From a virus (lineage: Duplodnaviria; Caudoviricetes): DNA of 61,314 bases. This document shows positions 4,771 to 60,156 of this stretch, piece after piece (positions within the stretch are counted from its first letter, which is position 1; every line of letters starts with the position of its first letter). Made by a program: the position numbers and the translations under genes. The notes under the pieces are model-generated. The model worked only from the letters and a program-made list of their open reading frames with translations. It had not been told where the DNA came from and ran no database searches. The stretch spans positions 1 through 61,314 of IMG/VR virus record IMGVR_UViG_3300025288_000022. One strand, 5' to 3'.

Positions 4771-4789
4771 GTTGTTAGCGGGTTTTCCC

Positions 4790-4821
4790 AAAGGGTGTCC
4801 TTCACGGGGCACCCTTTTTTT
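4790..4821 (+). terminator. Intrinsic terminator of the capsid operon
   Basis: AAAGGGTGTCC-TTCACG-GGGCACCCTTTTTTT. Confidence 0.85.
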
Positions 4822-4936
4822 GTCTTCATTTTTTAGAGCACTGTACCACAAACAGGAGTCCGCAACACTTGCATACAAAAACTGTTGTCTTCTTTGCAGT
4901 TGTATGCTATTGCTGATAAAAAATCTTGGAGGTACA

Positions 4937-6949
4937 ATGCTTTGTGTTGAGGATTTGGATGAGTGTAAGCTCCGGTTCCTGTACGAACAGGAGGGCTATT
5001 TAGATCAGCAAATAGCAGAGAGATATGGGACGTATCAAGTGAAGATCTCAAGAATGAGATCTAAGTGGGGCATCCCTACTATTAGCATGTCAGATAGGAT
5101 TTCGAGAGGGTTGCTTCCTCTGACAACTCAACAGAAGGAATTGTTGTTGGGCTCTTTGTTGGGGGATGGTTGCATGAAGGCCACCAGTGCAAAAACCGCC
5201 AGGTTTATTGAGAGACACTCTCTTAAACAAGAAGGGTATTTGCGATGGAAGGCTGAGATTCTAGGGGATTATGTCTCTTCCACCTACCCCGTGACTAAAT
5301 GGGAAGGGGATGTCCCCTATCCTGGGATAGAGTTCGCCACCAAAAGCTGCCAAGAATTGTACCCCTACTTCGACTTGTTTTACAAGTCGGGTAAGCGTGT
5401 GTTCCCAGCCTCCCTCAGCAATCTGCTGTCCCCATTCTCTCTGGCCATATGGTACTTGGATGATGGCAGCATCAAGCAACACACACACCCTAGCATCTCT
5501 TTTGGGTTAGACTCGCGGAGTCTGCACAGGGCTACCAAGGCATTAAGAGCATTAGGGCTTCAGCCTCAATATCTGGGTTCAGGGGGGAGGGGATCTATTG
5601 TGTTTCCTGGGCAAGCCGATTTGTTTTACCAAATAGTGGCTCCCCATGTGCCTGAATGCATGCAATACAAGCTACAGACACAGAAGGAGAGGAGGATTGT
5701 CGATGTAAATGCCAAGAGGCTGACACCTGAACGGGCTCGTGTACTGTATGAAGGTGGGATGTCTCTCAAAGACATTGCGGATGCTTACTCCGTGGGCCGT
5801 TCTACTGTTAGAAGAAGACTACAGGAGATGGGGGTTCCTCGGAGGGTTGTGGGTCGCCTAAGGCCCTCCTTTAGCCTAGAGGCTGCAAAGGTGGCCCTGC
5901 AGAATTATGACCCAAAGGTTTGGGCTACTCTCTCTCTGAGCCAGCAGGAGACCTGGGTGGGGGAAATCCTTAGCATATTGCTTCGGACCCCTTTCCCTTT
6001 CCCCTCGAAAGTTGAAAATTTGCAGAAAGAGTTTAGGTTCCTCTTAGAAAAGTCCTTACGGTTAGATGGGGTGGATATTAAGCCTCTTTCCCGGACGGGG
6101 TTGAGAATTTGCACACCCTATTTCCCAAACAGATATAAGGCAGCCTACCGTAAAACAAATTCCGCTTGGGAAGGGTGGCATGATCCCAAACACCTGCAAC
6201 GAGCTATCCTTTTCCAATTAAAGGTGGGTGATCCCGTAGTACCACATAGGGTTCTTCGGGCTTTGACTGCAAACTGCAGAACCCCAACGGTATTCCGCCC
6301 CACCATTGCTAAGTTTGTGTATGAGAATTATGCCCCAAAGGGTGGGAAGGTTTGGGATCCTTGCTCTGGATATGGCGGCAGGCTCTTAGGGGCAGGAGCT
6401 GCCGGGGTGCAATACTTGGGGACAGATGTGGAGCCTCAAACTGTTGCAGGCAACCTTGCTTTGAGTGCGGATTTGGGCTTGGATGCAGAAGTGGTTCTTT
6501 CTAAGGCAGAGGATTTCAATCCTGGGAAGGTAGATCTAGTGTTCACATCCCCCCCCTACTTTAATGTTGAAAGGTACTCGACCCGAGATGCCCAATCTTA
6601 CAAACAACACCAAGAGTTTAACCTTTGGTTGGAGGGGTTCTTGAGGCCTGTTATTCGGACATCCTATGCTTCTCTGGGGGTGGGGCAATATCTGATTCTG
6701 AATGTGGCCAACATTAACTTACCACGCCAAACTCTTCTCTTGGTGGAGTCTACATGCCGTTTGGCAGAGGAAGAGGGTTTCATCCATGAGCAGACGTTGC
6801 ACATGCCTCTTTCCAACCTTAACAGGAAGAACGGGATGGAGCCTTTGCTAGTCTTTAAGAAAGGGATTGCTAGCACACCTAGTACGAGAAAGAGCCTATT
6901 CGAGGGTCTGGGTATCGGAACATACAACCTCAAGAAGCCTCTTGGCTAG
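4937..6949 (+). CDS. LAGLIDADG homing endonuclease + HTH + amino (N4C/N6A) DNA methyltransferase fusion
   Basis: SD GGAGG before ATG 4937; LLGSLLGDG and LAIWYLDDG (LAGLIDADG_2 type); HTH GMSLKDIADAYSVGRSTVRRRL; MTase motif I DPCSGYGG and motif IV TSPPY. Confidence 0.85.
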   Translation: MLCVEDLDECKLRFLYEQEGYLDQQIAERYGTYQVKISRMRSKWGIPTISMSDRISRGLLPLTTQQKELLLGSLLGDGCMKATSAKTARFIERHSLKQEGYLRWKAEILGDYVSSTYPVTKWEGDVPYPGIEFATKSCQELYPYFDLFYKSGKRVFPASLSNLLSPFSLAIWYLDDGSIKQHTHPSISFGLDSRSLHRATKALRALGLQPQYLGSGGRGSIVFPGQADLFYQIVAPHVPECMQYKLQTQKERRIVDVNAKRLTPERARVLYEGGMSLKDIADAYSVGRSTVRRRLQEMGVPRRVVGRLRPSFSLEAAKVALQNYDPKVWATLSLSQQETWVGEILSILLRTPFPFPSKVENLQKEFRFLLEKSLRLDGVDIKPLSRTGLRICTPYFPNRYKAAYRKTNSAWEGWHDPKHLQRAILFQLKVGDPVVPHRVLRALTANCRTPTVFRPTIAKFVYENYAPKGGKVWDPCSGYGGRLLGAGAAGVQYLGTDVEPQTVAGNLALSADLGLDAEVVLSKAEDFNPGKVDLVFTSPPYFNVERYSTRDAQSYKQHQEFNLWLEGFLRPVIRTSYASLGVGQYLILNVANINLPRQTLLLVESTCRLAEEEGFIHEQTLHMPLSNLNRKNGMEPLLVFKKGIASTPSTRKSLFEGLGIGTYNLKKPLG

Positions 6950-42904: not shown

Positions 42905-43564
42905 CTACCCCATCTCAAAGCGGGGGTCTTTAGGGCCATTGACTTCCTGGACCTGAACCCCATATTTTTTCAAATAGTCTATTCCATCCTTGCCGCCAAG
43001 GTATCCCCCATCCACTACGATGACCTTGACGACTCCCGCATGGTGGATGATCTTGGCACACATGAGACAGGGTTCGGCCAAGATGATCATCCAAGAACCT
43101 GCGGTAGGAACTCCACCAGCAGCCGCATTGCAAATGACATTCATCTCTGCATGGTGACACCCTCGTTCCATCATGGTGCCGGACTTGATGGGTGGGTACT
43201 TCTCCACCATTTCATCAATCCAGGCTTCCGCCTTGTCCCCACTCATAAAGGTTTTGACCCCCTTGATCTCACCATAATGAACAAGGGTTCCGCTAACTAT
43301 CTTGTCATCCTGATAGATACCTAGAGCCACAATCTTGGCTTGGTCCCGATGGAAACCATCCCGTTCACAAAAGAACCCATGGCAGAGGTTCTCTGTAGCA
43401 CCTCGTGGCCCCCCGTTGTACCCGTCTGCCAAGATCACATTGCGGGTGGGATCGAGGAGTAGAGCCCCTAGCTTGCGTCGAGGGCAGTTGGAAGCCTTGG
43501 CGAGAGAGAGACACTGCTCAATCCGGATTTGGATGTGCTTAGGTGAGATCATGGTTCTTCTCAC
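42905..43564 (-). CDS. dCMP deaminase family protein
   Basis: SNCPRRKLGA, GYNG, HAEMN and PCLMC zinc-deaminase motifs. Confidence 0.9.
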   Translation of the reverse strand: MRRTMISPKHIQIRIEQCLSLAKASNCPRRKLGALLLDPTRNVILADGYNGGPRGATENLCHGFFCERDGFHRDQAKIVALGIYQDDKIVSGTLVHYGEIKGVKTFMSGDKAEAWIDEMVEKYPPIKSGTMMERGCHHAEMNVICNAAAGGVPTAGSWMIILAEPCLMCAKIIHHAGVVKVIVVDGGYLGGKDGIDYLKKYGVQVQEVNGPKDPRFEMG

Positions 43565-44094
43565 GTTCCCCTGTTAGAAGAGACAAGACCACCCATAGGG
43601 TCGTGGGCAAAGTCATACTCAAACTTTTGGTTGGACATGGAGAAGTGGTGGTTTGCATTGTGGGCGAGAGGGGGGCCTTGGCAGCAACCCATGAGAAGAG
43701 CCAGATCCTCTTCAGAAAGCCATTCCCACCAATGGATGAATTCCTTGGGGTCCTTGACAACACCTTCTTTGCGGTTTTCAATCTCCTTACGGAGTAAGAT
43801 CCCTAGGAAGTCGGTGCCACCCCCCTTGTGGAGTTCTTCAGTGGCGTTTTGGATGAGCCCTGCTAGAGCACTGGCCCAGGTCTTCTTGTCCGCTGAAGGG
43901 CCTTCAACCTCAATGGCTAGGTCTTCCTTACGGACAAGGGCGAACCTGTTGGGTGCAAGGGTCACCCAACACCCGTTGAAGCTCATCGTATGCTCAAGTA
44001 GCTTGGTCTTGGGCGGGCAGTACTGTTGAATTCGGTGCAACAAACAGTCGTAGTCTTCCAAAGGAACCTCCTTGAGTGTCCTTACCCGCTTCAA
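43561..44094 (-). CDS. Hypothetical protein
   Basis: 177-aa ORF coupled to the deaminase start. Confidence 0.65.
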   Translation of the reverse strand: MKRVRTLKEVPLEDYDCLLHRIQQYCPPKTKLLEHTMSFNGCWVTLAPNRFALVRKEDLAIEVEGPSADKKTWASALAGLIQNATEELHKGGGTDFLGILLRKEIENRKEGVVKDPKEFIHWWEWLSEEDLALLMGCCQGPPLAHNANHHFSMSNQKFEYDFAHDPMGGLVSSNRGT

Positions 44095-44116: not shown

Positions 44117-44151
44117 AAAAAAAAAGGCTGTCCGGTGAAGGACAGCCTTTT
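44117..44151 (-). terminator. Terminator closing the tRNA array
   Basis: AAAAGGCTGTCC-TTCACC-GGACAGCC followed by 9 U on the minus strand. Confidence 0.9.
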
Positions 44152-44239
44152 TGGAGGAAGCGGTGGGATTCGAACCCACGGAGGTTTGACCCCCGCTAGT
44201 TTTCAAGACTAGATCCATCGACCACTCGGACACGCTTCC
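44152..44239 (-). tRNA. tRNA-Ser(UGA)
   Basis: Manual cloverleaf; CTAGT-CT TGA AA-ACTAG; long variable arm; encoded CCA. Confidence 0.92.
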
Positions 44240-44282
44240 TGATGCGGGTACCGTTACTCCTTCTGCACATGGCAGATGAGCT

Positions 44283-44370
44283 TGGTGGGAGAGGAGGGAC
44301 TCGAACCCCCGACGACCGAAGTGCCGCGTTTACAGCGTGGTGTGGACTACCAACATCACACAACTCTCCC
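44283..44370 (-). tRNA. tRNA-Tyr(GUA), copy with an A-C mismatch in the anticodon stem
   Basis: CCACG-CT GTA AA-CGCGG; encoded CCA. Confidence 0.85.
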
Positions 44371-44387
44371 AGAATTCCACCATCCCA

Positions 44388-44473
44388 TGGTGCAGCCAGT
44401 GGGACTCGAACCCACACACCCTTACGAGCACTGGCACCTGAAGCCAGCGTGTCTGCCATTTCACCATGGCTGC
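44388..44473 (-). tRNA. tRNA-Leu(CAG)
   Basis: CTGGC-TT CAG GT-GCCAG; encoded ACCA. Confidence 0.92.
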
Positions 44474-44475
44474 AT

Positions 44476-44568
44476 TGGCAGAAGAGATGGGAATTGAACC
44501 CACGGACCCCTTTTGGGGGTCACCAGTTTTCCAAACTGGCACAGCTCACCAACCTCTGTCGCTCTTCT
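44476..44568 (-). tRNA. tRNA-Ser(GGA) with C8
   Basis: CCAGT-TT GGA AA-ACTGG; long variable arm; GCCA end. Confidence 0.88.
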
Positions 44569-44579
44569 GTATTGGTCAT

Positions 44580-44670
44580 TGGCGGAGAAGATGGGAATTG
44601 AACCCACGGACCCTATTGAGGCCCTCCGTTTTCGAAACGGACACAGCCCACCAACCTCTGTTGCTTCCCC
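44580..44670 (-). tRNA. tRNA-Ser(CGA) with C8 and G3:U70
   Basis: TCCGT-TT CGA AA-ACGGA; acceptor GGGGAAG/CTTCTCC; GCCA end. Confidence 0.88.
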
Positions 44671-44744
44671 GGAAAAGGTGGAATCGAACCACCATTACTA
44701 GAATTAGCCCACAATAGTGGGCTGCAGATCCTCAACATCTTCCG
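44670..44744 (-). ncRNA. tRNA-like element (acceptor and T arm intact, no canonical anticodon loop, no CCA)
   Basis: CGGAAGA/TTTTCCG stem; GGTGG-TTCGATT-CCACC T arm; AGCCCAC-TATT-GTGGGCT hairpin. Confidence 0.55.
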
Positions 44745-44749
44745 CTCTT

Positions 44750-44826
44750 TGGCAGGAGGGGTGGGAATCGAACTCACCACATCTGGTTTTGGAAACCGGA
44801 TCGCCATCCCTGGGACATGCCCCCCT
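44750..44826 (-). tRNA. tRNA-Trp(CCA), atypical (C8, stem mismatches)
   Basis: CCGGT-TT CCA AA-ACCAG; acceptor AGGGGGG/CCCTCCT; GCCA end. Confidence 0.8.
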
Positions 44827-44830
44827 GCAA

Positions 44831-44916
44831 TGGTGCAGCCAGTGGGAGTTGAACCCACACGCCCTTACGAGCACAGCCACCTCAAGGCTGCGTGTCTGCC
44901 ATTTCACCATGGCTGC
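44831..44916 (-). tRNA. tRNA-Leu(GAG)
   Basis: CAGCC-TT GAG GT-GGCTG; ACCA end. Confidence 0.92.
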
Positions 44917-44930
44917 ATAAGAAATCCAAT

Positions 44931-45016
44931 TGGTGCTCATGGTGGGACTCGAACCCACACGCCCTTACGAGCAAGGGATTTTAAGTCCCCAATGTCTACC
45001 ATTCCACCACACGAGC
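44931..45016 (-). tRNA. tRNA-Leu(UAA)
   Basis: GGGGA-CT TAA AA-TCCCT; ACCA end. Confidence 0.92.
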
Positions 45017-45019
45017 ATT

Positions 45020-45106
45020 TGGAGGAAGGCAGGAGAGTCGAACTCCAATGCTTTCACATCGATCCGTTTAGCAAACGGGCCCCTGTCCACACAGGGATTA
45101 CCTTCC
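45020..45106 (-). tRNA. tRNA-Ser(GCU) with 8/4 fold
   Basis: Acceptor GGAAGGTA/TGCCTTCC (8 bp); T stem GGAG/CTCC (4 bp); 6-bp D stem; loop TT GCT AA. Confidence 0.85.
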
Positions 45107-45113
45107 AAAAACA

Positions 45114-45201
45114 TGGTGGGAGAGGAGGGACTCGAACCCCCGACGACCGAAGTGCCGCGTTTACAGCGCGGTGTGGACTACCAACATCACACAACTCTCC
45201 C
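45114..45201 (-). tRNA. tRNA-Tyr(GUA)
   Basis: CCGCG-CT GTA AA-CGCGG; ACCA end. Confidence 0.9.
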
Positions 45202-45218
45202 AGAATTCCACCATTCCA

Positions 45219-45304
45219 TGGTGCAGCCAGTGGGACTCGAACCCACACACCCTAGAGTACAGGTGCCTAAAACCTGCGCGTCTACCAAATTCCGCCATGG
45301 CTGC
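45219..45304 (-). tRNA. tRNA-Leu(UAG)
   Basis: CAGGT-TT TAG GC-ACCTG; ACCA end. Confidence 0.92.
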
Positions 45305-45315
45305 ATAATTGAAAA

Positions 45316-45390
45316 GGGAGGGCAAGTTGAGGAGTCGAACCTCTCTAATACCTTTGCTAGAGTACGCAAGTTGACGCTTGCTTGGTGCCC
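45316..45390 (-). ncRNA. Second tRNA-like element or pseudo-tRNA
   Basis: GGGCA/TGCCC ends; GAGG-TTCGACT-CCTC T arm; ends TCCC; no recognisable anticodon arm. Confidence 0.5.
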
Positions 45391-45408
45391 ATTAAAAACC
45401 CAACAAGT

Positions 45409-45493
45409 TGGTGCGGAAGGTGGGATTCGAACCCACATGCCTTTTGGGCAAGGGTTTTTGAGACCCTCATGTCTGCCTTTCCATCACTCCCGC
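45409..45493 (-). tRNA. tRNA-Leu(CAA)
   Basis: AGGGT-CT CAA AA-ACCCT; ACCA end. Confidence 0.92.
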
Positions 45494-45552
45494 ATAGGCC
45501 CCGTTGGTGTTGGGGCTTTACATCCTTATTCAGGTTTTCAATCTGTCTCTAC

Positions 45553-45578
45553 TACGCTGAGGTCTTCACTTTTGAAAC
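45553..45578 (-). promoter_or_regulatory. GTTTCA-N14-AGCGTA promoter motif between the attenuator and the first tRNA
   Basis: Same spacing as seven other copies; lies inside the inverted repeat 45549-45591. Confidence 0.6.
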
Positions 45579-45614
45579 CTTTGCGTAGTAGGTTTCTTTG
45601 AAACGGAATCTTAC

Positions 45615-45655
45615 AAAGAAAAAGCCCCTTCTGGTTGGTGTTCCGGAGGGGCTTT
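45615..45655 (-). terminator. Attenuator terminator upstream of the tRNA array
   Basis: GCCCCTCCGG-AACACCAA-CCAGAAGGGGC followed by TTTTTCTTT. Confidence 0.85.
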
Positions 45656-45843: not shown

Positions 45844-46074
45844 TTAGCGCTTCAGGAACGAAGCAGCCGCCTGCCATCCCACAGCCGTGAGCTGCCTGAG
45901 GCCCTGGTTATCCACTCGTTTAGATAGCCACCCTTTTTGAAGGGCGTGTTCAAAGTACAAGTTGGGAAGGGTGTGGGTCACAAGGTCCTCTTCCTTGAGT
46001 CCCTTGTTGATGATGGCTAGGTTAGCCCAGTCCACAAGGATTTGTCGAGTACGTTGGTCAATAAAGGCAGACTC
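45844..46074 (-). CDS. Small hypothetical protein
   Basis: ORF ending before the tRNA promoter; start uncertain, may extend to 46093 or 46110. Confidence 0.5.
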   Translation of the reverse strand, partial: ESAFIDQRTRQILVDWANLAIINKGLKEEDLVTHTLPNLYFEHALQKGWLSKRVDNQGLRQLTAVGWQAAASFLKR

Positions 46075-46159
46075 TGCTTTGCTTCGTTCCATCCGGATCC
46101 TCGAGGTCAATAGGTGTCTTATAACACGGGAGGATTATATCTACTAGGGGTAGCCCACC

Positions 46160-47005
46160 ATGGCTCATGTTGATTATCGTTCCGAGGCTATCCATCTTGC
46201 GGCATCTTTCCCTGCGGGAAGCGAGGATCGTGTCCAGATTCTTGCCTCCCTCAATGAGGAGCAGATTCTGAAGATGGCTATCAGCAAGGACACCGAAGCC
46301 TTCCTTTCATGGGCTCTCCAGCGAAATGACGAGATGAGTCCTTCGTCAGTTGAGCGCTTTCTGGAGAAGGTTACAGGCCATGAAGCAACACAGCCTGTGG
46401 ATGCTGTGAAGCCAAAGCGTGGGCCTTTGGAGGAGGGTGAGATCATCCTTTGTGATGCGCATCGCAATGGCAATCCCCAGAACGTGGAGGCTTGCGAGAA
46501 GTATCATGACCGCGTTGGGGTGGTGAAGGGTCGTACACCTGAAGGCCTTGTGATCCAGTTCTACCGCAAGGATACGGATCAGCCCGAGTCAGGTGCTGTG
46601 GCTTTCTTTGATGGTGTGGCTTCTGGCAAGGGCACTGGTCTGTACCGCTGGACGATGAAGGCAGACTACCAGGAGCGTGCTGTGTCAAACATGGCTCTTC
46701 TTGAGATCGTCTATCTGCGTGGGGGCACAACCCCACCTCCTCAGCGTGACATTGATGCTCTCCAGAAGTACGTTGAAGAGGGCCTTTCCCGTGGTGAGAA
46801 TCGTTCGGAGATCTACCAGACTGGGTATGTTGGGAAGTTCGCCTACAGCAAGGAAGGCAACATGTACTTCGTGCTGTCTTCCCAGCAGCGTGACCGTCCT
46901 ACGACCATCAGCCCAACCAAGGGTCGCATCTTGTACCTAGGGTATGTGGGTAAGCGTCCAGGTGGTTGGAAGGCTGATGCCAAGTCTATGGGTATTGCTG
47001 TCTAA
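46160..47005 (+). CDS. Hypothetical protein with shared leader (AIHLAASFPAGSEDRVQILASL)
   Basis: 281 aa; biased codons. Confidence 0.75.
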   Translation: MAHVDYRSEAIHLAASFPAGSEDRVQILASLNEEQILKMAISKDTEAFLSWALQRNDEMSPSSVERFLEKVTGHEATQPVDAVKPKRGPLEEGEIILCDAHRNGNPQNVEACEKYHDRVGVVKGRTPEGLVIQFYRKDTDQPESGAVAFFDGVASGKGTGLYRWTMKADYQERAVSNMALLEIVYLRGGTTPPPQRDIDALQKYVEEGLSRGENRSEIYQTGYVGKFAYSKEGNMYFVLSSQQRDRPTTISPTKGRILYLGYVGKRPGGWKADAKSMGIAV

Positions 47006-47549: not shown

Positions 47550-48980
47550 ATGGCTGCAGTACCCGGATGGGAACCCATCAGTGAGTATCCCTACCCTCCA
47601 GCAAATGTGCAGGTGTTCTCCCCCTTCCTAGGGGGTTGCTTCGACATTCGTTGGGACAACCCCTTGACCCTCTCCACAGGCCCCATTGCGTGTGGTGGTA
47701 AGTCCAACATGTCTTGGAACATTGTTGGAGTGAACATCTACCGTTCGGATACGGGAGAGCGCGGGCCTTATTTCCGCTTGAACAACTTCCCTCTAGGTAT
47801 GGATTTCTACCGGGATTGTACAGACAATGCCCTAGTAGATGCGGAGGTTGTGGATTGGGGTTCACAGTGGGTGTCCAAGGCCAACTCCCCTAATAGCCGA
47901 GCATGGGTTTTTCGGACTAGGTGGACACCTATCGTAAAGAGAGAGGGGCAGTCCATCCCTGCAGATAACCCCACAGATGTGACTGTGACCATAGATGGCC
48001 AGACCGTGGTGCCAAGTTGGGTGAACGGCGTGTCAGGGGAGATTACCCTGATCAATACCCCCACATATGACCCCTCAACAGAACGTCTTGTAGACCCCAT
48101 TCTGCCCAAAGCAGATGGTAGTTCTGTGGTGCAGGTCACCTACCATAGGCCAAGGAATTTCGTCAAGACAGACTTGGAACAGAAGGCCAAAATCTTCTAC
48201 CGAGTCACCTCCGTGGCCGTAGATCCTACAGGCACAACCCCTTCAGGCTATGTGGAGACCCCTTTGGGGTACACCCAGCCTGCCTCCCCTATGGACGTAG
48301 AGTCTCTGGACTACATTTGGAGAGAGGCACAGAAGAGGAACCAGTGGATTCTGGAGCAGGGTGGGGAACGGGTCTACTTGTTCATCCGTAGAAACACCGG
48401 GGTGTCCTGTCCCTGTCAATGGGACGAACAGCTCTTTGAGTATAGCAAGCAGCCTCTTAACAGGTGCTTGGATTGCTACGGGACGGGGTTCCTGCGGGGG
48501 TATGAGGGACCCATCCCTTTGATTGTGGGTCCAGATGATGCTGAGCGTGCCGTGCGCCAGACCCCTACAGGGCGAAGGCTTGAGCACACTTATGAAGTAT
48601 GGACAGGGGTGCGTCCGTTGGTCTCCCAGAGGGACTTCATCTTGAAGCAGACGGGGGAGAGATACAGCATTGGTCCAGTACGTCGCCCTGCGATTCGAGG
48701 CCTGCCTCTTCAACAGCACTTCAACATTGCCTATTTGGACGAGCAGGATATTCGGTACAAGATCCCTATGGTAGGCACAAGCCAACAACCTTGGCCAGAG
48801 ACTCGATACACGAAGCCAGAAGAGGCCCCTTGTGTGGGTGGTGATCCCTTCCCAGTAGGTTATACCTATGAACCTAGCCCCATGGCAACAGAGGTGGCTA
48901 AGGTTCCTGATGGTAGAGAGCAGAGAGGCCGCTCGCCGGTTTATGCCAACTTGACCTATGGTGGTAAGGGGGGGTCATGA
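47550..48980 (+). CDS. Neck/head-closure-like protein with Zn-binding Cys cluster
   Basis: LEQGGERV...CPC...CLDCYGTGF..GY motif of large-myophage neck proteins. Confidence 0.6.
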   Translation: MAAVPGWEPISEYPYPPANVQVFSPFLGGCFDIRWDNPLTLSTGPIACGGKSNMSWNIVGVNIYRSDTGERGPYFRLNNFPLGMDFYRDCTDNALVDAEVVDWGSQWVSKANSPNSRAWVFRTRWTPIVKREGQSIPADNPTDVTVTIDGQTVVPSWVNGVSGEITLINTPTYDPSTERLVDPILPKADGSSVVQVTYHRPRNFVKTDLEQKAKIFYRVTSVAVDPTGTTPSGYVETPLGYTQPASPMDVESLDYIWREAQKRNQWILEQGGERVYLFIRRNTGVSCPCQWDEQLFEYSKQPLNRCLDCYGTGFLRGYEGPIPLIVGPDDAERAVRQTPTGRRLEHTYEVWTGVRPLVSQRDFILKQTGERYSIGPVRRPAIRGLPLQQHFNIAYLDEQDIRYKIPMVGTSQQPWPETRYTKPEEAPCVGGDPFPVGYTYEPSPMATEVAKVPDGREQRGRSPVYANLTYGGKGGS

Positions 48981-58216: not shown

Positions 58217-58657
58217 ATGCCCAACCCCCGCCCAATGCGAGTTCTTCTTGTTGAGGATCACTTTGCGGATGTTACACTAACTCGCAAAGCCTTTGGGCGT
58301 TTAGCTACGCCAAATTGTTTGGATGTTGTGTTGGATGGGGCGGAGGCTATGAAGTTCCTACGGAAGCAGGGTCGTTATGTCGATGCCCAACGTCCTGACT
58401 TGGTACTTCTGGACCTCAACATGCCTAGGATGACCGGTTTGGAGGTCCTACAGGCTCTATGGGGAGAGGACTCCCTACGCAGTATTCCTGTAGTGGTTCT
58501 GACAACGTCCTCAGCTGTACAAGACGTGCAAGGCTCTTATGATCTGGGGGCTTCCAGCTATCTTGTGAAGCCTGTGGGGTTTCAGGACTTCATGAGCATT
58601 GTGGAAGTTATTGAGACCTATTGGTTTCATACCGTGTTGTTGCCGAGTCAAGTATGA
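58217..58657 (+). CDS. Single-domain response regulator (Rcp1-like receiver)
   Basis: LLVED, LLDLNMP, LTTS, YLVKP and C-terminal YWF..V.LP typical of Rcp1-type receivers. Confidence 0.95.
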   Translation: MPNPRPMRVLLVEDHFADVTLTRKAFGRLATPNCLDVVLDGAEAMKFLRKQGRYVDAQRPDLVLLDLNMPRMTGLEVLQALWGEDSLRSIPVVVLTTSSAVQDVQGSYDLGASSYLVKPVGFQDFMSIVEVIETYWFHTVLLPSQV

Positions 58658-60156
58658 CCCTCGCCACTATCCACATGCTCTCTCTTGGGGTTGCTGCGGT
58701 TAGTGTGCTGGGTTTTCTGGCTAAAGCCCTCCATTCAGAGTCTAAGTTCCGCCTCTTAGCCATAAATTCTTCTGATGTGGTTGCGATCCATGATCGGGAG
58801 GGGCGTTTCCTGTGGGTGTCTCCTTCCGTATTTAGGATGCTGGGTAAGACCCCCGAAGCTTTGGTTGGACACCTCCCGTATCAACTGTTCCACCCCGAAG
58901 ATCTTAAGCCTCTTCAGGTCTGCTTGAAGACTCTCCATTCTGAGGCTGTACGCACCACCTACAGGGTGAGGGGTACATCGGGGCAGTACCTGTGGGTGGA
59001 AACCATCATGCAGCCTCGTAAGGACCTCTGGGGGCGATTGGTGGGGTTTCAGACATCCACTCGGGATGTGACTGAACAGCGTGACGCACAAGACCTCTAC
59101 AGGTTCCTTGTACGCCACTTACCTAAGACCTCGGTCTTTCTTTTCGATGCACAGTTCAAGCACCGAATCGCAGGAGGAGACTTCTTAGACCTGGTGGATG
59201 AATGCCTTACTGGCAAAACCCTAGACGAGGTTTACCCCCCTGAAGTGAGCGGGGTGCTTTCCCCGTACTACTCCAGAATCTTTGAGGGGCATCCTTCAAA
59301 GATTGAGTATGCCTTTGGCCATAGGACATATCGTATCCACTTCCTTCCCATCTATGGGGCACAGGGTGTGGTCGAGATGGGTATGGCTGTGTTCCATGAT
59401 GTGACTCAAGAGAAGGCGCATACTAAAGCCCTGCTTGGCCAGACTCAAGATCTGGAACGGTCGAATAGAGATCTAGAGCAGTTTGCCAACGTGGCCTCAC
59501 ATGAACTGAAATCTCCGCTACGGCGTATTCAGTCCTTCGTGGATCTCTTGTCAGATGATTATTTTGATTCCCTTACGGAAGAGGCAGACGAGTACCTTCA
59601 ACATATCCGAGAGGGTGTTGAGAACCTACAGGCTGTGGTAGAGTCTCTCCTCGTGTACTCTCGTGTTCAGGTGCAGGATGCACGGAACAATATGACATGG
59701 GTAGACCTCAATCAGGTCTGTGAGGAGGCTATCCAAAGCCTCTCCCTCCTCATTGAGGAGAAGGGGGCTAAGATCAAGGTTTCTGGCCTCCCTGGAATGG
59801 TGGCAGGTGATGCAGGCCTTCTTCGTCAAGTTTTTGAAAACCTGATTGGCAATGCCATCAAGTTCACCCCTGAAGGCGTCGTCCCTGAGATTCAGGTATG
59901 GGTTGACCGCAACACCGTGAATTGGGAGATTGCGGTGAAGGACAACGGCTTTGGGATCGATCCCAACCAGCAAGACAAGATCTTCAAGATGTTCCACCGT
60001 TTGAACCACCATGTGGAAGGGACAGGCATTGGTCTGGCCCTCTGCAAGAAGATTGTGGAAACCCATCGTGGTGAAATTTGGGTGCATTCTGCTATTGGTG
60101 AGGGATCTACTTTCCGCTTCTCAATTCCAGATCACGCACCCTCCGATGTGATCTAG
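58654..60156 (+). CDS. PAS-PAS sensor histidine kinase with N-terminal membrane helix
   Basis: LERSNRDLEQFANVASHELKSP H box; NLIGNAIKF, DNGFGI and GTGIGL boxes; ATGA coupling. Confidence 0.95.
   Translation: MTLATIHMLSLGVAAVSVLGFLAKALHSESKFRLLAINSSDVVAIHDREGRFLWVSPSVFRMLGKTPEALVGHLPYQLFHPEDLKPLQVCLKTLHSEAVRTTYRVRGTSGQYLWVETIMQPRKDLWGRLVGFQTSTRDVTEQRDAQDLYRFLVRHLPKTSVFLFDAQFKHRIAGGDFLDLVDECLTGKTLDEVYPPEVSGVLSPYYSRIFEGHPSKIEYAFGHRTYRIHFLPIYGAQGVVEMGMAVFHDVTQEKAHTKALLGQTQDLERSNRDLEQFANVASHELKSPLRRIQSFVDLLSDDYFDSLTEEADEYLQHIREGVENLQAVVESLLVYSRVQVQDARNNMTWVDLNQVCEEAIQSLSLLIEEKGAKIKVSGLPGMVAGDAGLLRQVFENLIGNAIKFTPEGVVPEIQVWVDRNTVNWEIAVKDNGFGIDPNQQDKIFKMFHRLNHHVEGTGIGLALCKKIVETHRGEIWVHSAIGEGSTFRFSIPDHAPSDVI

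Follow-up and report, generated by a model that had tools for sequence, protein, structure and literature searches.

A 61,314-nucleotide stretch of viral DNA, the linear IMG/VR record IMGVR_UViG_3300025288_000022 (hereafter the window, meaning the whole of this stretch), carries all of its tRNAs in a single minus-strand array of 1342 bases (45493-44152), which comprises 12 tRNAs and two remnants. The array encodes tRNA-Leu with the anticodons CAA, UAG, UAA, GAG and CAG, tRNA-Ser with GCU, CGA, GGA and UGA, two copies of tRNA-Tyr(GUA) and one tRNA-Trp(CCA), and between them the Leu anticodons (five) and the Ser anticodons (four) serve all twelve codons of these two amino acids. On the basis of the genes, the limits of the operon, the duplications within it and the homologous blocks and full tRNA sets observed in relatives, we consider the array to be probably an inherited block, enlarged by local duplication and anticodon switching, of a near-complete phage tRNA complement. 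We infer that type I tRNAs are encoded elsewhere in this phage and that the array tRNAs are expressed. Arrays of tRNA genes are a familiar feature of phages; an operon devoted to a complete long-arm set is unusual, and no description of a dedicated long-arm tRNA operon in phages was found in the literature searched, as judged by titles and abstract starts.

ARAGORN at default settings returned 11 genes over the whole window, namely ten ordinary tRNAs and one tRNA-like element with a 6-nt anticodon loop, ordered in the direction of transcription as Leu CAA, Leu UAG, Tyr, Leu UAA, Leu GAG, the tRNA-like element, Ser CGA, Ser GGA, Leu CAG, Tyr and Ser UGA. Ser GCU and Trp CCA were called only after lowering the thresholds to 90%, and the complete Leu/Ser/Tyr/Trp list that a first-pass annotation had read from the sequence was thus confirmed. 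The same annotation had proposed an ARAGORN check of the whole phage DNA; run on the window, it returned no tRNA beyond 44152-45493, in agreement with the Rfam scan of the 61 kb, and no tRNA-Sec was found in the window. The gathering score of the Rfam tRNA model was passed by eight of the 12 genes. The Rfam tRNA-Sec model has a cut-off of 47 bits, so that the values given below for Ser(GCU) and Trp are sub-threshold. The elements of the array and of its borders are the following, in the order of transcription:

45613..45653, minus strand: hairpin followed by a T-run, stem AGCCCCT/AGGGGCT, loop with AACACCAAC (sequence reading, motif search)
45498..45516, minus strand: second hairpin, GCCCC-AACACCAAC-GGGGC, 4 nt upstream of the first tRNA (motif search)
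45409..45493, minus strand: tRNA-Leu(CAA), type II, 85 nt, A73, CCA (ARAGORN; Rfam 52.3 bits)
about 45320..45408, minus strand: decayed tRNA-like remnant with a T-arm-like GAGGTTCGACTCCTC and a 5-bp acceptor-like closing stem, without a usable anticodon loop
45219..45304, minus strand: tRNA-Leu(UAG), type II, 86 nt, A73, CCA (ARAGORN; Rfam 56 bits)
45114..45201, minus strand: tRNA-Tyr(GUA) copy 1, type II, 88 nt, A73, CCA (ARAGORN; Rfam 42 bits)
45020..45106, minus strand: tRNA-Ser(GCU), type II, 87 nt, U73, CCA (ARAGORN at 90%; Rfam tRNA-Sec model 34.5 bits)
44931..45016, minus strand: tRNA-Leu(UAA), type II, 86 nt, A73, CCA (ARAGORN; Rfam 55.1 bits)
44831..44916, minus strand: tRNA-Leu(GAG), type II, 86 nt, A73, CCA (ARAGORN; Rfam 52.6 bits)
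44750..44826, minus strand: tRNA-Trp(CCA), type I, 77 nt, A1-U72, G73, CCA (ARAGORN at 90%; Rfam tRNA-Sec model 32.1 bits)
44669..44744, minus strand: tRNA-like pseudogene whose acceptor and T arms are good, variable region of about 12 nt, without CCA (ARAGORN '???'; fold z -3.84)
44580..44670, minus strand: tRNA-Ser(CGA), type II, 91 nt, G73, CCA (ARAGORN)
44476..44568, minus strand: tRNA-Ser(GGA), type II, 93 nt, G73, CCA (ARAGORN; Rfam tRNA-Sec model 39.7 bits, below cut-off)
44388..44473, minus strand: tRNA-Leu(CAG), type II, 86 nt, A73, CCA (ARAGORN; Rfam 55.2 bits)
44283..44370, minus strand: tRNA-Tyr(GUA) copy 2, 88 nt (ARAGORN; Rfam 36.9 bits)
44152..44239, minus strand: tRNA-Ser(UGA), type II, 88 nt, U73, CCA (ARAGORN; Rfam 54.1 bits)
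44121..44152, minus strand: intrinsic terminator directly after the last tRNA, 13-pair stem with 6 G-C pairs, then a T-run

The ten ordinary genes have long variable arms, lengths of 85-93 nt, an encoded CCA end and clean cloverleaves. The cloverleaves also bore out the earlier count of 11 type II genes among the 12 anticodon-bearing tRNAs, and the variable stems of these 11 genes measure 3-7 bp. A type II-shaped tRNA-Tyr is a sign of a bacterial-type system. All Leu and Tyr genes have A73 as discriminator base; Trp has G73, as do the Ser genes CGA and GGA, while the Ser genes UGA and GCU have U73. In Rfam, Ser(CGA) fell below the tRNA gathering score and matched only clan relatives, under their cut-offs. 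The two Tyr copies differ by one base, which leaves an A.C mismatch in the anticodon stem of copy 2.

Ser(GCU) and Trp, the two genes called at the lowered threshold, were taken as real since both have counterparts in G001, a complete metagenomic genome related to the window. The acceptor stem of Ser(GCU), GGAAGGT, is identical in the Ser(GCU) of G001, and the Trp acceptor AGGGGGG compares with AGGGGGC in G001; in both Trp genes the acceptor stem is separated from the D stem by a single nucleotide. Ser(GCU) folds more stably than its shuffles (z -3.75), its D arm having as an alternative fold a 6-7 bp hairpin with a 4-nt loop, while the free fold of Trp is no better than shuffles (z 0.40) and shows one mismatch in the anticodon stem and one in the T stem. 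The Ser(GCU) of G001 carries G73, unlike the U73 of the window gene. As for the remnants, which the first-pass annotation had not mentioned, the one at about 45320-45408 was returned by ARAGORN as '???' only at the 80% threshold and is no stabler than shuffles (z -0.21). In the pseudogene at 44669-44744 the anticodon stem measures 7 bp and its loop 4-6 nt, and this element overlaps the Ser(CGA) gene by 2 nt.

The genes stand in tandem on one strand of a phage genome, with spacers of -2 to 43 nt, and were found by independent detectors, as befits a phage tRNA gene array. The array looks like one transcription unit, because a hairpin with a T-run lies upstream and a strong terminator directly follows the last gene. 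The hairpin at 45613-45653 is likely to be the terminator of the upstream minus-strand ORF 45844-46110 and to set the 5' limit of the tRNA unit; a hairpin scan returned the complementary hairpin on the plus strand at 45626-45651, the minus-strand loop being beyond the loop limit of the tool. The second hairpin, at 45498-45516, may be a processing or regulatory element. The motif AACACCAAC was found twice in the window, both times in these hairpins just upstream of the operon, and a gapped version of the hairpin pattern had no match in IMG/VR viral contigs. No sigma-70-like promoter was found in the interval 45494-45612 (about 115 nt).

The paralogues within the array bear the marks of local duplication. 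Identity reaches 99% between the two Tyr genes, 91% between Leu CAG and Leu GAG, 85% between Leu CAG and Leu UAG, and 81% between Ser GGA and Ser CGA, while the array tRNAs are at most 70-77% identical to any tRNA of the relatives. A whole Leu-spacer-Tyr unit occurs twice, at 45304-45114 and 44473-44283. Its two copies show only two mismatches in the roughly 140 nt that run from the T arm of Leu through the whole of Tyr, and the two Leu genes of the unit differ in the D loop, the anticodon arm and the variable arm.

The phage that carries the array is most likely a huge, phage-G-like myovirus. CheckV assigned the window a completeness of 13, and the full genome would be expected to measure about 0.45 Mb, so that the window would represent about 13% of it and about 87% would lie outside. 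The ORFs of the window include a head protease, a major head protein, a 1750-aa sheath-like protein, an SLT lysin, a deoxynucleoside kinase and a dCMP deaminase. The nearest records found for the window's major capsid protein (MCP) include LR745208.1, an uncultured phage of 485 kb, with 85% identity; the same protein is 48% identical in Tunturi_5 (PP885688.1; 309 kb, cultured on an acidobacterium), whose sheath protein is 31% identical, and 39% identical in Bacillus phage G (498 kb). The structural genes of LR745208.1 are syntenic with those of the window at 27-85% identity (MCP 85%, other genes 27-57%). In the window, these conserved plus-strand genes are broken by a minus-strand block at about 37.8-46.1 kb, which contains the array and has no counterpart in LR745208.1 at that place. 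An attempt to find the bacterial host through the phage histidine kinase gave nine weak bacterial matches, 21-31% identical and spread over many phyla, from which no host emerged.

Large tRNA sets occur in complete relatives of the window. G001 (436 kb, with terminal repeats) has 70 tRNAs for 20 amino acids, and 13 of its 14 Leu/Ser/Tyr genes are gathered in one 22-gene plus-strand array, which begins Leu-Ser-Leu-Ser-Trp-Leu-Phe-Phe-Tyr-Tyr-Leu-Leu-Leu. In G002 (536 kb; 68 tRNAs, 19 amino acids), a second complete metagenomic genome, all 12 such genes likewise lie in one 22-gene plus-strand array, beginning Leu-Tyr-Tyr-Ser-Ser-Ser-Leu-Ser-Glu-Trp-Phe-Phe-Phe-Leu-Leu-Leu-Leu. Besides Trp and Phe, both arrays contain Thr and Glu genes, and in both genomes nearly all other tRNAs stand on the opposite strand, 15-50 kb from the block. 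Tunturi_5, in which we counted 41 tRNAs for 19 amino acids, holds all eight of its Leu/Ser/Tyr genes in a nine-gene array (Leu-Cys-Leu-Leu-Tyr-Leu-Ser-Ser-Ser), with 32 type I genes 7-24 kb downstream. The arrangement found in the window thus recurs in a cultured phage and in two complete metagenomic genomes, each with a full type I set beside the block. The text available of the Tunturi_5 paper gives 43 tRNAs for 20 amino acids and lists them without remark on their grouping (Microbiome 2025, PMC11924767).

Other members of the lineage are arranged differently. LR745208.1 has 36 tRNAs for 18 amino acids in small amino-acid clusters, and its Leu/Ser/Tyr genes occupy three separate places (four Ser; Tyr-Cys-His; five Leu). 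In phage G, one cluster unites Cys, Asp, Phe, Tyr, Glu, Thr, Ser and Trp, and G020, a 51-kb fragment with a head protein 88% identical to that of the window, shows a mixed array of 12 tRNAs, four of them Leu/Ser/Tyr. Three further complete or near-complete relatives (G003-G005) have 6-12 tRNAs each and no Leu/Ser/Tyr block, and four fragments (G006-G009) have 0-3 tRNAs each. Among 18 MCP-bearing fragments, G020 is the only one with an array, and of two other huge-phage loci L001 has one tRNA and L002 is mixed. Over the four tRNA-rich complete relatives (36-70 tRNAs, 18-20 amino acids), a full type I set was found elsewhere in the genome in every case.

The relatives also encode Leu-anticodon tRNAs of 70-79 nt with a short, type I-like variable loop, in which A73 and a Leu-like D arm are retained; the majority lie inside the Leu/Ser/Tyr arrays. 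They account for three of six Leu genes in G002, two of four in Tunturi_5, one of seven in G001, and none of five in either LR745208.1 or the window. No published description of such short-arm phage tRNAs was found, as judged from the search listing. Their positions are:

G002, locus L062, 4864-5110: short-arm Leu tRNAs
Tunturi_5, locus L072, 1669-1747 and 2112-2189: short-arm Leu tRNAs
G001, locus L059, 10092-10161: short-arm Leu tRNA

The grouping of Leu, Ser and Tyr is unlikely to be due to chance. At the share of Leu/Ser/Tyr genes in four relatives (44 of 215, 20.5%), the probability of at least 11 type II genes among 12 is 2.6e-7. Since isoacceptor copies are not independent, a count by family is fairer, and drawing four of the 20 families so as to include all three type II families has P = 0.0035. 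Adjacency in the relatives was evaluated by collapsing runs of the same amino acid, shuffling the runs and counting how often Leu/Ser/Tyr adjacencies were at least as many as observed, which gave P values of 0.0004-0.0007 for G002, 0.012-0.016 for Tunturi_5 and 0.085-0.11 for G001, with no signal in LR745208.1 or phage G. Among all amino-acid triples, Leu/Ser/Tyr ranked 2nd of 969 in G002, 4th of 969 in Tunturi_5, 23rd of 1140 in G001 and 305th of 816 in LR745208.1. These results are not independent events, since the genomes tested are related. Of four unrelated phages, two (Aeh1 and DSS3_MAL1) have neighbouring Leu and Ser genes and two (EniLVp02 and BillNye) have their type II genes scattered; the stretch of Atu_ph07 examined had no tRNA annotation.

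According to the proposed mechanism, a single polycistronic operon would provide a full decoding set for Leu, Ser, Tyr and Trp, and the other tRNA blocks would lie in the remaining 87% of the genome. The near-pure type II make-up would result in the first place from the inheritance of a Leu/Ser/Tyr(+Trp/Cys/Phe) block preserved as a unit in several phages of the lineage, and in the second place from local tandem duplication followed by anticodon switching. The leucyl- and seryl-tRNA synthetases (LeuRS and SerRS) do not read the anticodon. Full Leu and Ser isoacceptor sets would be easy to build in place, because a duplicate with a new anticodon would still be charged correctly. The charging itself is presumably performed by host enzymes, since none of five relatives encodes a LeuRS-type (PF00133) or a Tyr/TrpRS-type (PF00579) synthetase; PF00587 was matched by short ORFs in two of the five, away from the arrays. 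The general function of the complement, an idea from the literature on phage tRNAs, would be translation independent of the host tRNA pool.

Several observations weigh against this reading. Duplication alone leaves unexplained why three amino-acid families stand together (run-collapsed P about 0.0005 in G002 and about 0.014 in Tunturi_5), and something beyond drift may hold Leu, Ser and Tyr in one place. The block is not universal in the clade, because LR745208.1, in spite of its 85%-identical MCP, keeps these genes in three places and phage G and G020 mix the two types. The window array is also purer than those of G001 and G002, having no Phe, Thr or Glu. Its site is not shared either: none of 48 relatives has an array within 10 kb of the homologue of ORF 47550-48980, and 45 of the 48 have no tRNA there at all, the exceptions being L021 with three odd tRNAs, L025 with a tmRNA and L032 with one tRNA. 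Finally, the type I set of this phage is deduced from relatives, and the expectation for the remaining 87% rests on genomes whose shared proteins are 27-85% identical. Pattern and protein scans recovered no further genome: an exact 32-nt Tyr pattern had no match in viral or metagenome contigs, a 27-nt Leu pattern had none in metagenome contigs, IMG/VR protein scans with ORFs 43561-44094 and 46160-47005 and with the dCMP deaminase (42905-43564) returned no relatives. Two ORFs neighbouring the array gave no usable match in the ESM Atlas.

The first-pass annotation had proposed that the array was selected by tRNA shape rather than by codon usage, pointing to a nuclease that recognises the long variable arm. 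The part concerning codon usage and the non-random grouping held, while selection by shape found no support, as the same block lies beside full type I sets in three relatives and two such arrays hold short-loop Leu tRNAs. In its general form, this explanation states that a host effector reads the long variable arm, either an RNase resembling SLFN11 or a nucleotidyltransferase toxin like MenT3 or AbiEii, and that the phage class II operon replaces or out-titrates the damaged host pool. We consider it unlikely, although it would account for the cross-family grouping of Leu, Ser and Tyr being non-random in the window, G002 and Tunturi_5, for the membership of the block being kept while order, strand and genome position change, and for the block of G001 and G002 standing on the strand opposite the type I arrays. 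The loss of the long arm in some Leu-anticodon tRNAs of relatives could be interpreted as escape. However, all five Leu tRNAs of the window retain long arms, and the Leu, Ser and Tyr arms are ordinary. Since two relatives' arrays hold short-loop Leu tRNAs, the grouping follows amino-acid families and descent at least as well as shape. The block always includes at least one type I tRNA (Trp, Cys or Phe), and the tRNA content of relatives that share it is not limited to the supposed targets. A clade-wide version, in which phage-G-like phages would keep their class II tRNAs in a separately transcribed operon as a common target of a host immunity that reads the long variable arm (AbiE/MenT-type CCA-end nucleotidyltransferases or Schlafen-type RNases), with the window array as the purest example and the short-arm Leu tRNAs of Tunturi_5 and G002 as escape variants, seems improbable to us as well.

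The step from the array to a long-arm nuclease was likewise unsupported. No tRNA repair, CCA-adding, tRNase or nuclease-inhibitor gene was recognised among 64 ORFs of the window, and the bacterial Schlafens, in the portions of the sources available, show no specificity for type II tRNAs: the substrates of RorSlfn5 are Lys, Ala, Met, Val, Phe and Ile tRNAs, and CbCash cuts the T loop of tRNAs broadly, a behaviour which its authors contrast with the type II preference of human SLFN11 (PMC13462974, in the text available). MenT3, a toxin of the tuberculosis bacterium, reads the long variable arm and prefers Ser over Leu tRNAs (PMC11541572), and for AbiEii of Streptococcus agalactiae, an abortive-infection toxin, a class II preference was inferred from band sizes only (bioRxiv 10.64898/2026.01.19.700257); both act by extending the CCA end with nucleotides, not by cleavage. 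SLFN11, MenT3 and AbiEii thus single out the tRNA class that fills the array, and none of them is linked to this phage.

A further explanation takes as the unit the owners of the UNN codons, i.e. the first row of the codon table (Phe, Leu, Ser, Tyr, Cys and Trp), whose tRNAs would have arisen adjacently, being one anticodon mutation apart, or would share a maturation need linked to A36-A37. In tRNAs with A36-A37, MiaA introduces the i6A37 modification. This set explains the type I members of the blocks, i.e. Trp in the window, Cys in Tunturi_5 and Trp plus Phe in G001 and G002, and the cluster of phage G contains Cys, Phe, Tyr, Ser and Trp. Eight window tRNAs (Leu CAA and UAA, Ser CGA, GGA and UGA, both Tyr, and Trp) have A36-A37-A38. 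The run-collapsed shuffles are as good as or better than those for Leu/Ser/Tyr alone (P = 0.0027 in G001, 0.00005 in G002 and 0.016 in Tunturi_5), for a set that was, however, picked after seeing the data. Moreover, the readers of Leu CUN and Ser AGY codons belong to it only through their families, Cys lies elsewhere in G001, as do Phe and Trp in Tunturi_5, and Thr and Glu genes stand within the arrays of G001 and G002. A change of anticodon cannot turn a type I into a type II tRNA, and no MiaA-like gene was seen in the window. We consider this explanation quite unlikely.

Compensation of codon usage, by which the phage would supply tRNAs for Leu, Ser and Tyr codons that are frequent in its genes and poorly decoded by the host, is the classical explanation for phage tRNAs and is cited as such in the discussion of the Tunturi paper (PMC11924767, in the part available). 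Leu and Ser are indeed among the commonest residues of the window (8.8% and 7.3% of 17571 codons in 55 ORFs), and Leu, Ser, Tyr and Trp together own 15 codons that make up 20.8% of the total. Codon use within the two large families is nevertheless fairly even, from 4% (TTA) to 23% for the Leu codons and from 11% to 26% for the Ser codons, each with a cognate tRNA in the array. Because every Leu and Ser codon has a cognate tRNA, even the rare TTA, codon bias does not explain the array, and this account is very doubtful; judged from the genes, the set would be a complete replacement of decoding capacity rather than a top-up for particular codons. Scarcely credible, finally, is a decaying and largely neutral remnant of an ancestral tRNA region in which long-arm genes were kept by happenstance, since the two clearly decayed elements among 14, the two stem mismatches of Trp and the A.C mismatch of the second Tyr copy stand against ten genes with clean cloverleaves, encoded CCA and the expected discriminator bases, an intact operon terminator and recent duplications that denote ongoing turnover rather than decay.

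The reading as an inherited block was also compared with known systems. Near-complete tRNA complements have reportedly been described in huge phages by Al-Shayeb et al. (2020). The sets of the window's own lineage (LR745208.1, G001, G002) consist of tens of tRNAs, often in arrays by amino acid, with suppressors and tmRNA, whereas the 61 kb of the window show only the Leu/Ser/Tyr/Trp block, inside a region of structural genes. The closest likeness is with Tunturi_5, which also has a separate one-strand array with short spacers made almost only of Leu, Ser and Tyr genes plus one type I gene (eight of nine; Cys). Unlike the window, Tunturi_5 has its 32 further tRNAs downstream, an annotated CCA-adding enzyme and an RtcB-like ligase, and its block lacks Leu UAG and Ser UGA, has a single Tyr and includes two short-loop genes among its four Leu tRNAs. 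Phage T5 offers a functional parallel, since its tRNA-Tyr counters the PtuAB effector of Retron-Eco7 and its tRNA-Lys the AriB effector of PARIS, according to the available parts of the reports. In the same way, the tRNAs of the window phage could stand in for host tRNAs attacked by an immune effector, and the array includes Tyr. T5, however, uses a single tRNA species per known effector, while the array spans three whole amino-acid families.

If the grouping reflects only inherited linkage and duplication, it is a small point on the evolution of phage tRNA regions. If selection holds the block together, it becomes a test of whether arm-reading bacterial effectors shape the tRNA content of phages, and the shape hypothesis is testable, because Tunturi_5, with the same block, grows on a cultured soil bacterium, Tunturiibacter psychrotolerans.

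When 76 ORFs of the window were compared by tblastn with the relatives' tRNA regions, none proved to be a conserved neighbour of the Leu/Ser/Tyr block, and a single match lay nearby, a homologue of the dCMP deaminase (49% identical) next to three odd tRNAs in G001. This odd-loop set of G001 stands in a neighbourhood matching that of the window array. Genes with 6- or 8-nt anticodon loops ('tc', 'ggga' twice, 'ttta' and 'tgaa') were observed in relatives at the following sites:

G001, locus L061, 1728-1801 and 4787-4950: odd-loop tRNA genes
Locus L005, 2332-2406: odd-loop tRNA gene
G002, locus L062, 7498-7586: odd-loop tRNA gene

Suppressor tRNAs were also present in four relatives. Their anticodon is UUA, except for CUA in G001, and the genes of G001 and G002 reach type II length, at 90-91 nt:

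G001, locus L060, 1943-2033: suppressor tRNA, CUA
G002, locus L065, 1473-1562: suppressor tRNA, UUA
LR745208.1, locus L007, 7629-7705: suppressor tRNA, UUA
Phage G, 411932-412006: suppressor tRNA, UUA

The window encodes a response regulator and a PAS histidine kinase at 58217-60156, and their homologues in G001, 35-37% identical, adjoin the CUA suppressor tRNA of that genome. Directly after the major head gene, a 725-aa ORF (4772-6949) combines a LAGLIDADG homing-endonuclease domain, a helix-turn-helix (HTH) and a DNA methylase-like C-terminus, and its counterpart in LR745208.1 is 27% identical. The 1750-aa protein encoded at 52270-57522 matches tail sheath (phrog_2839) in its last 370 residues or so; it is far longer than usual sheath proteins and has long counterparts in LR745208.1 and Tunturi_5. 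The ORFs of the window end with TAG in 25 cases, TGA in 16 and TAA in 14.

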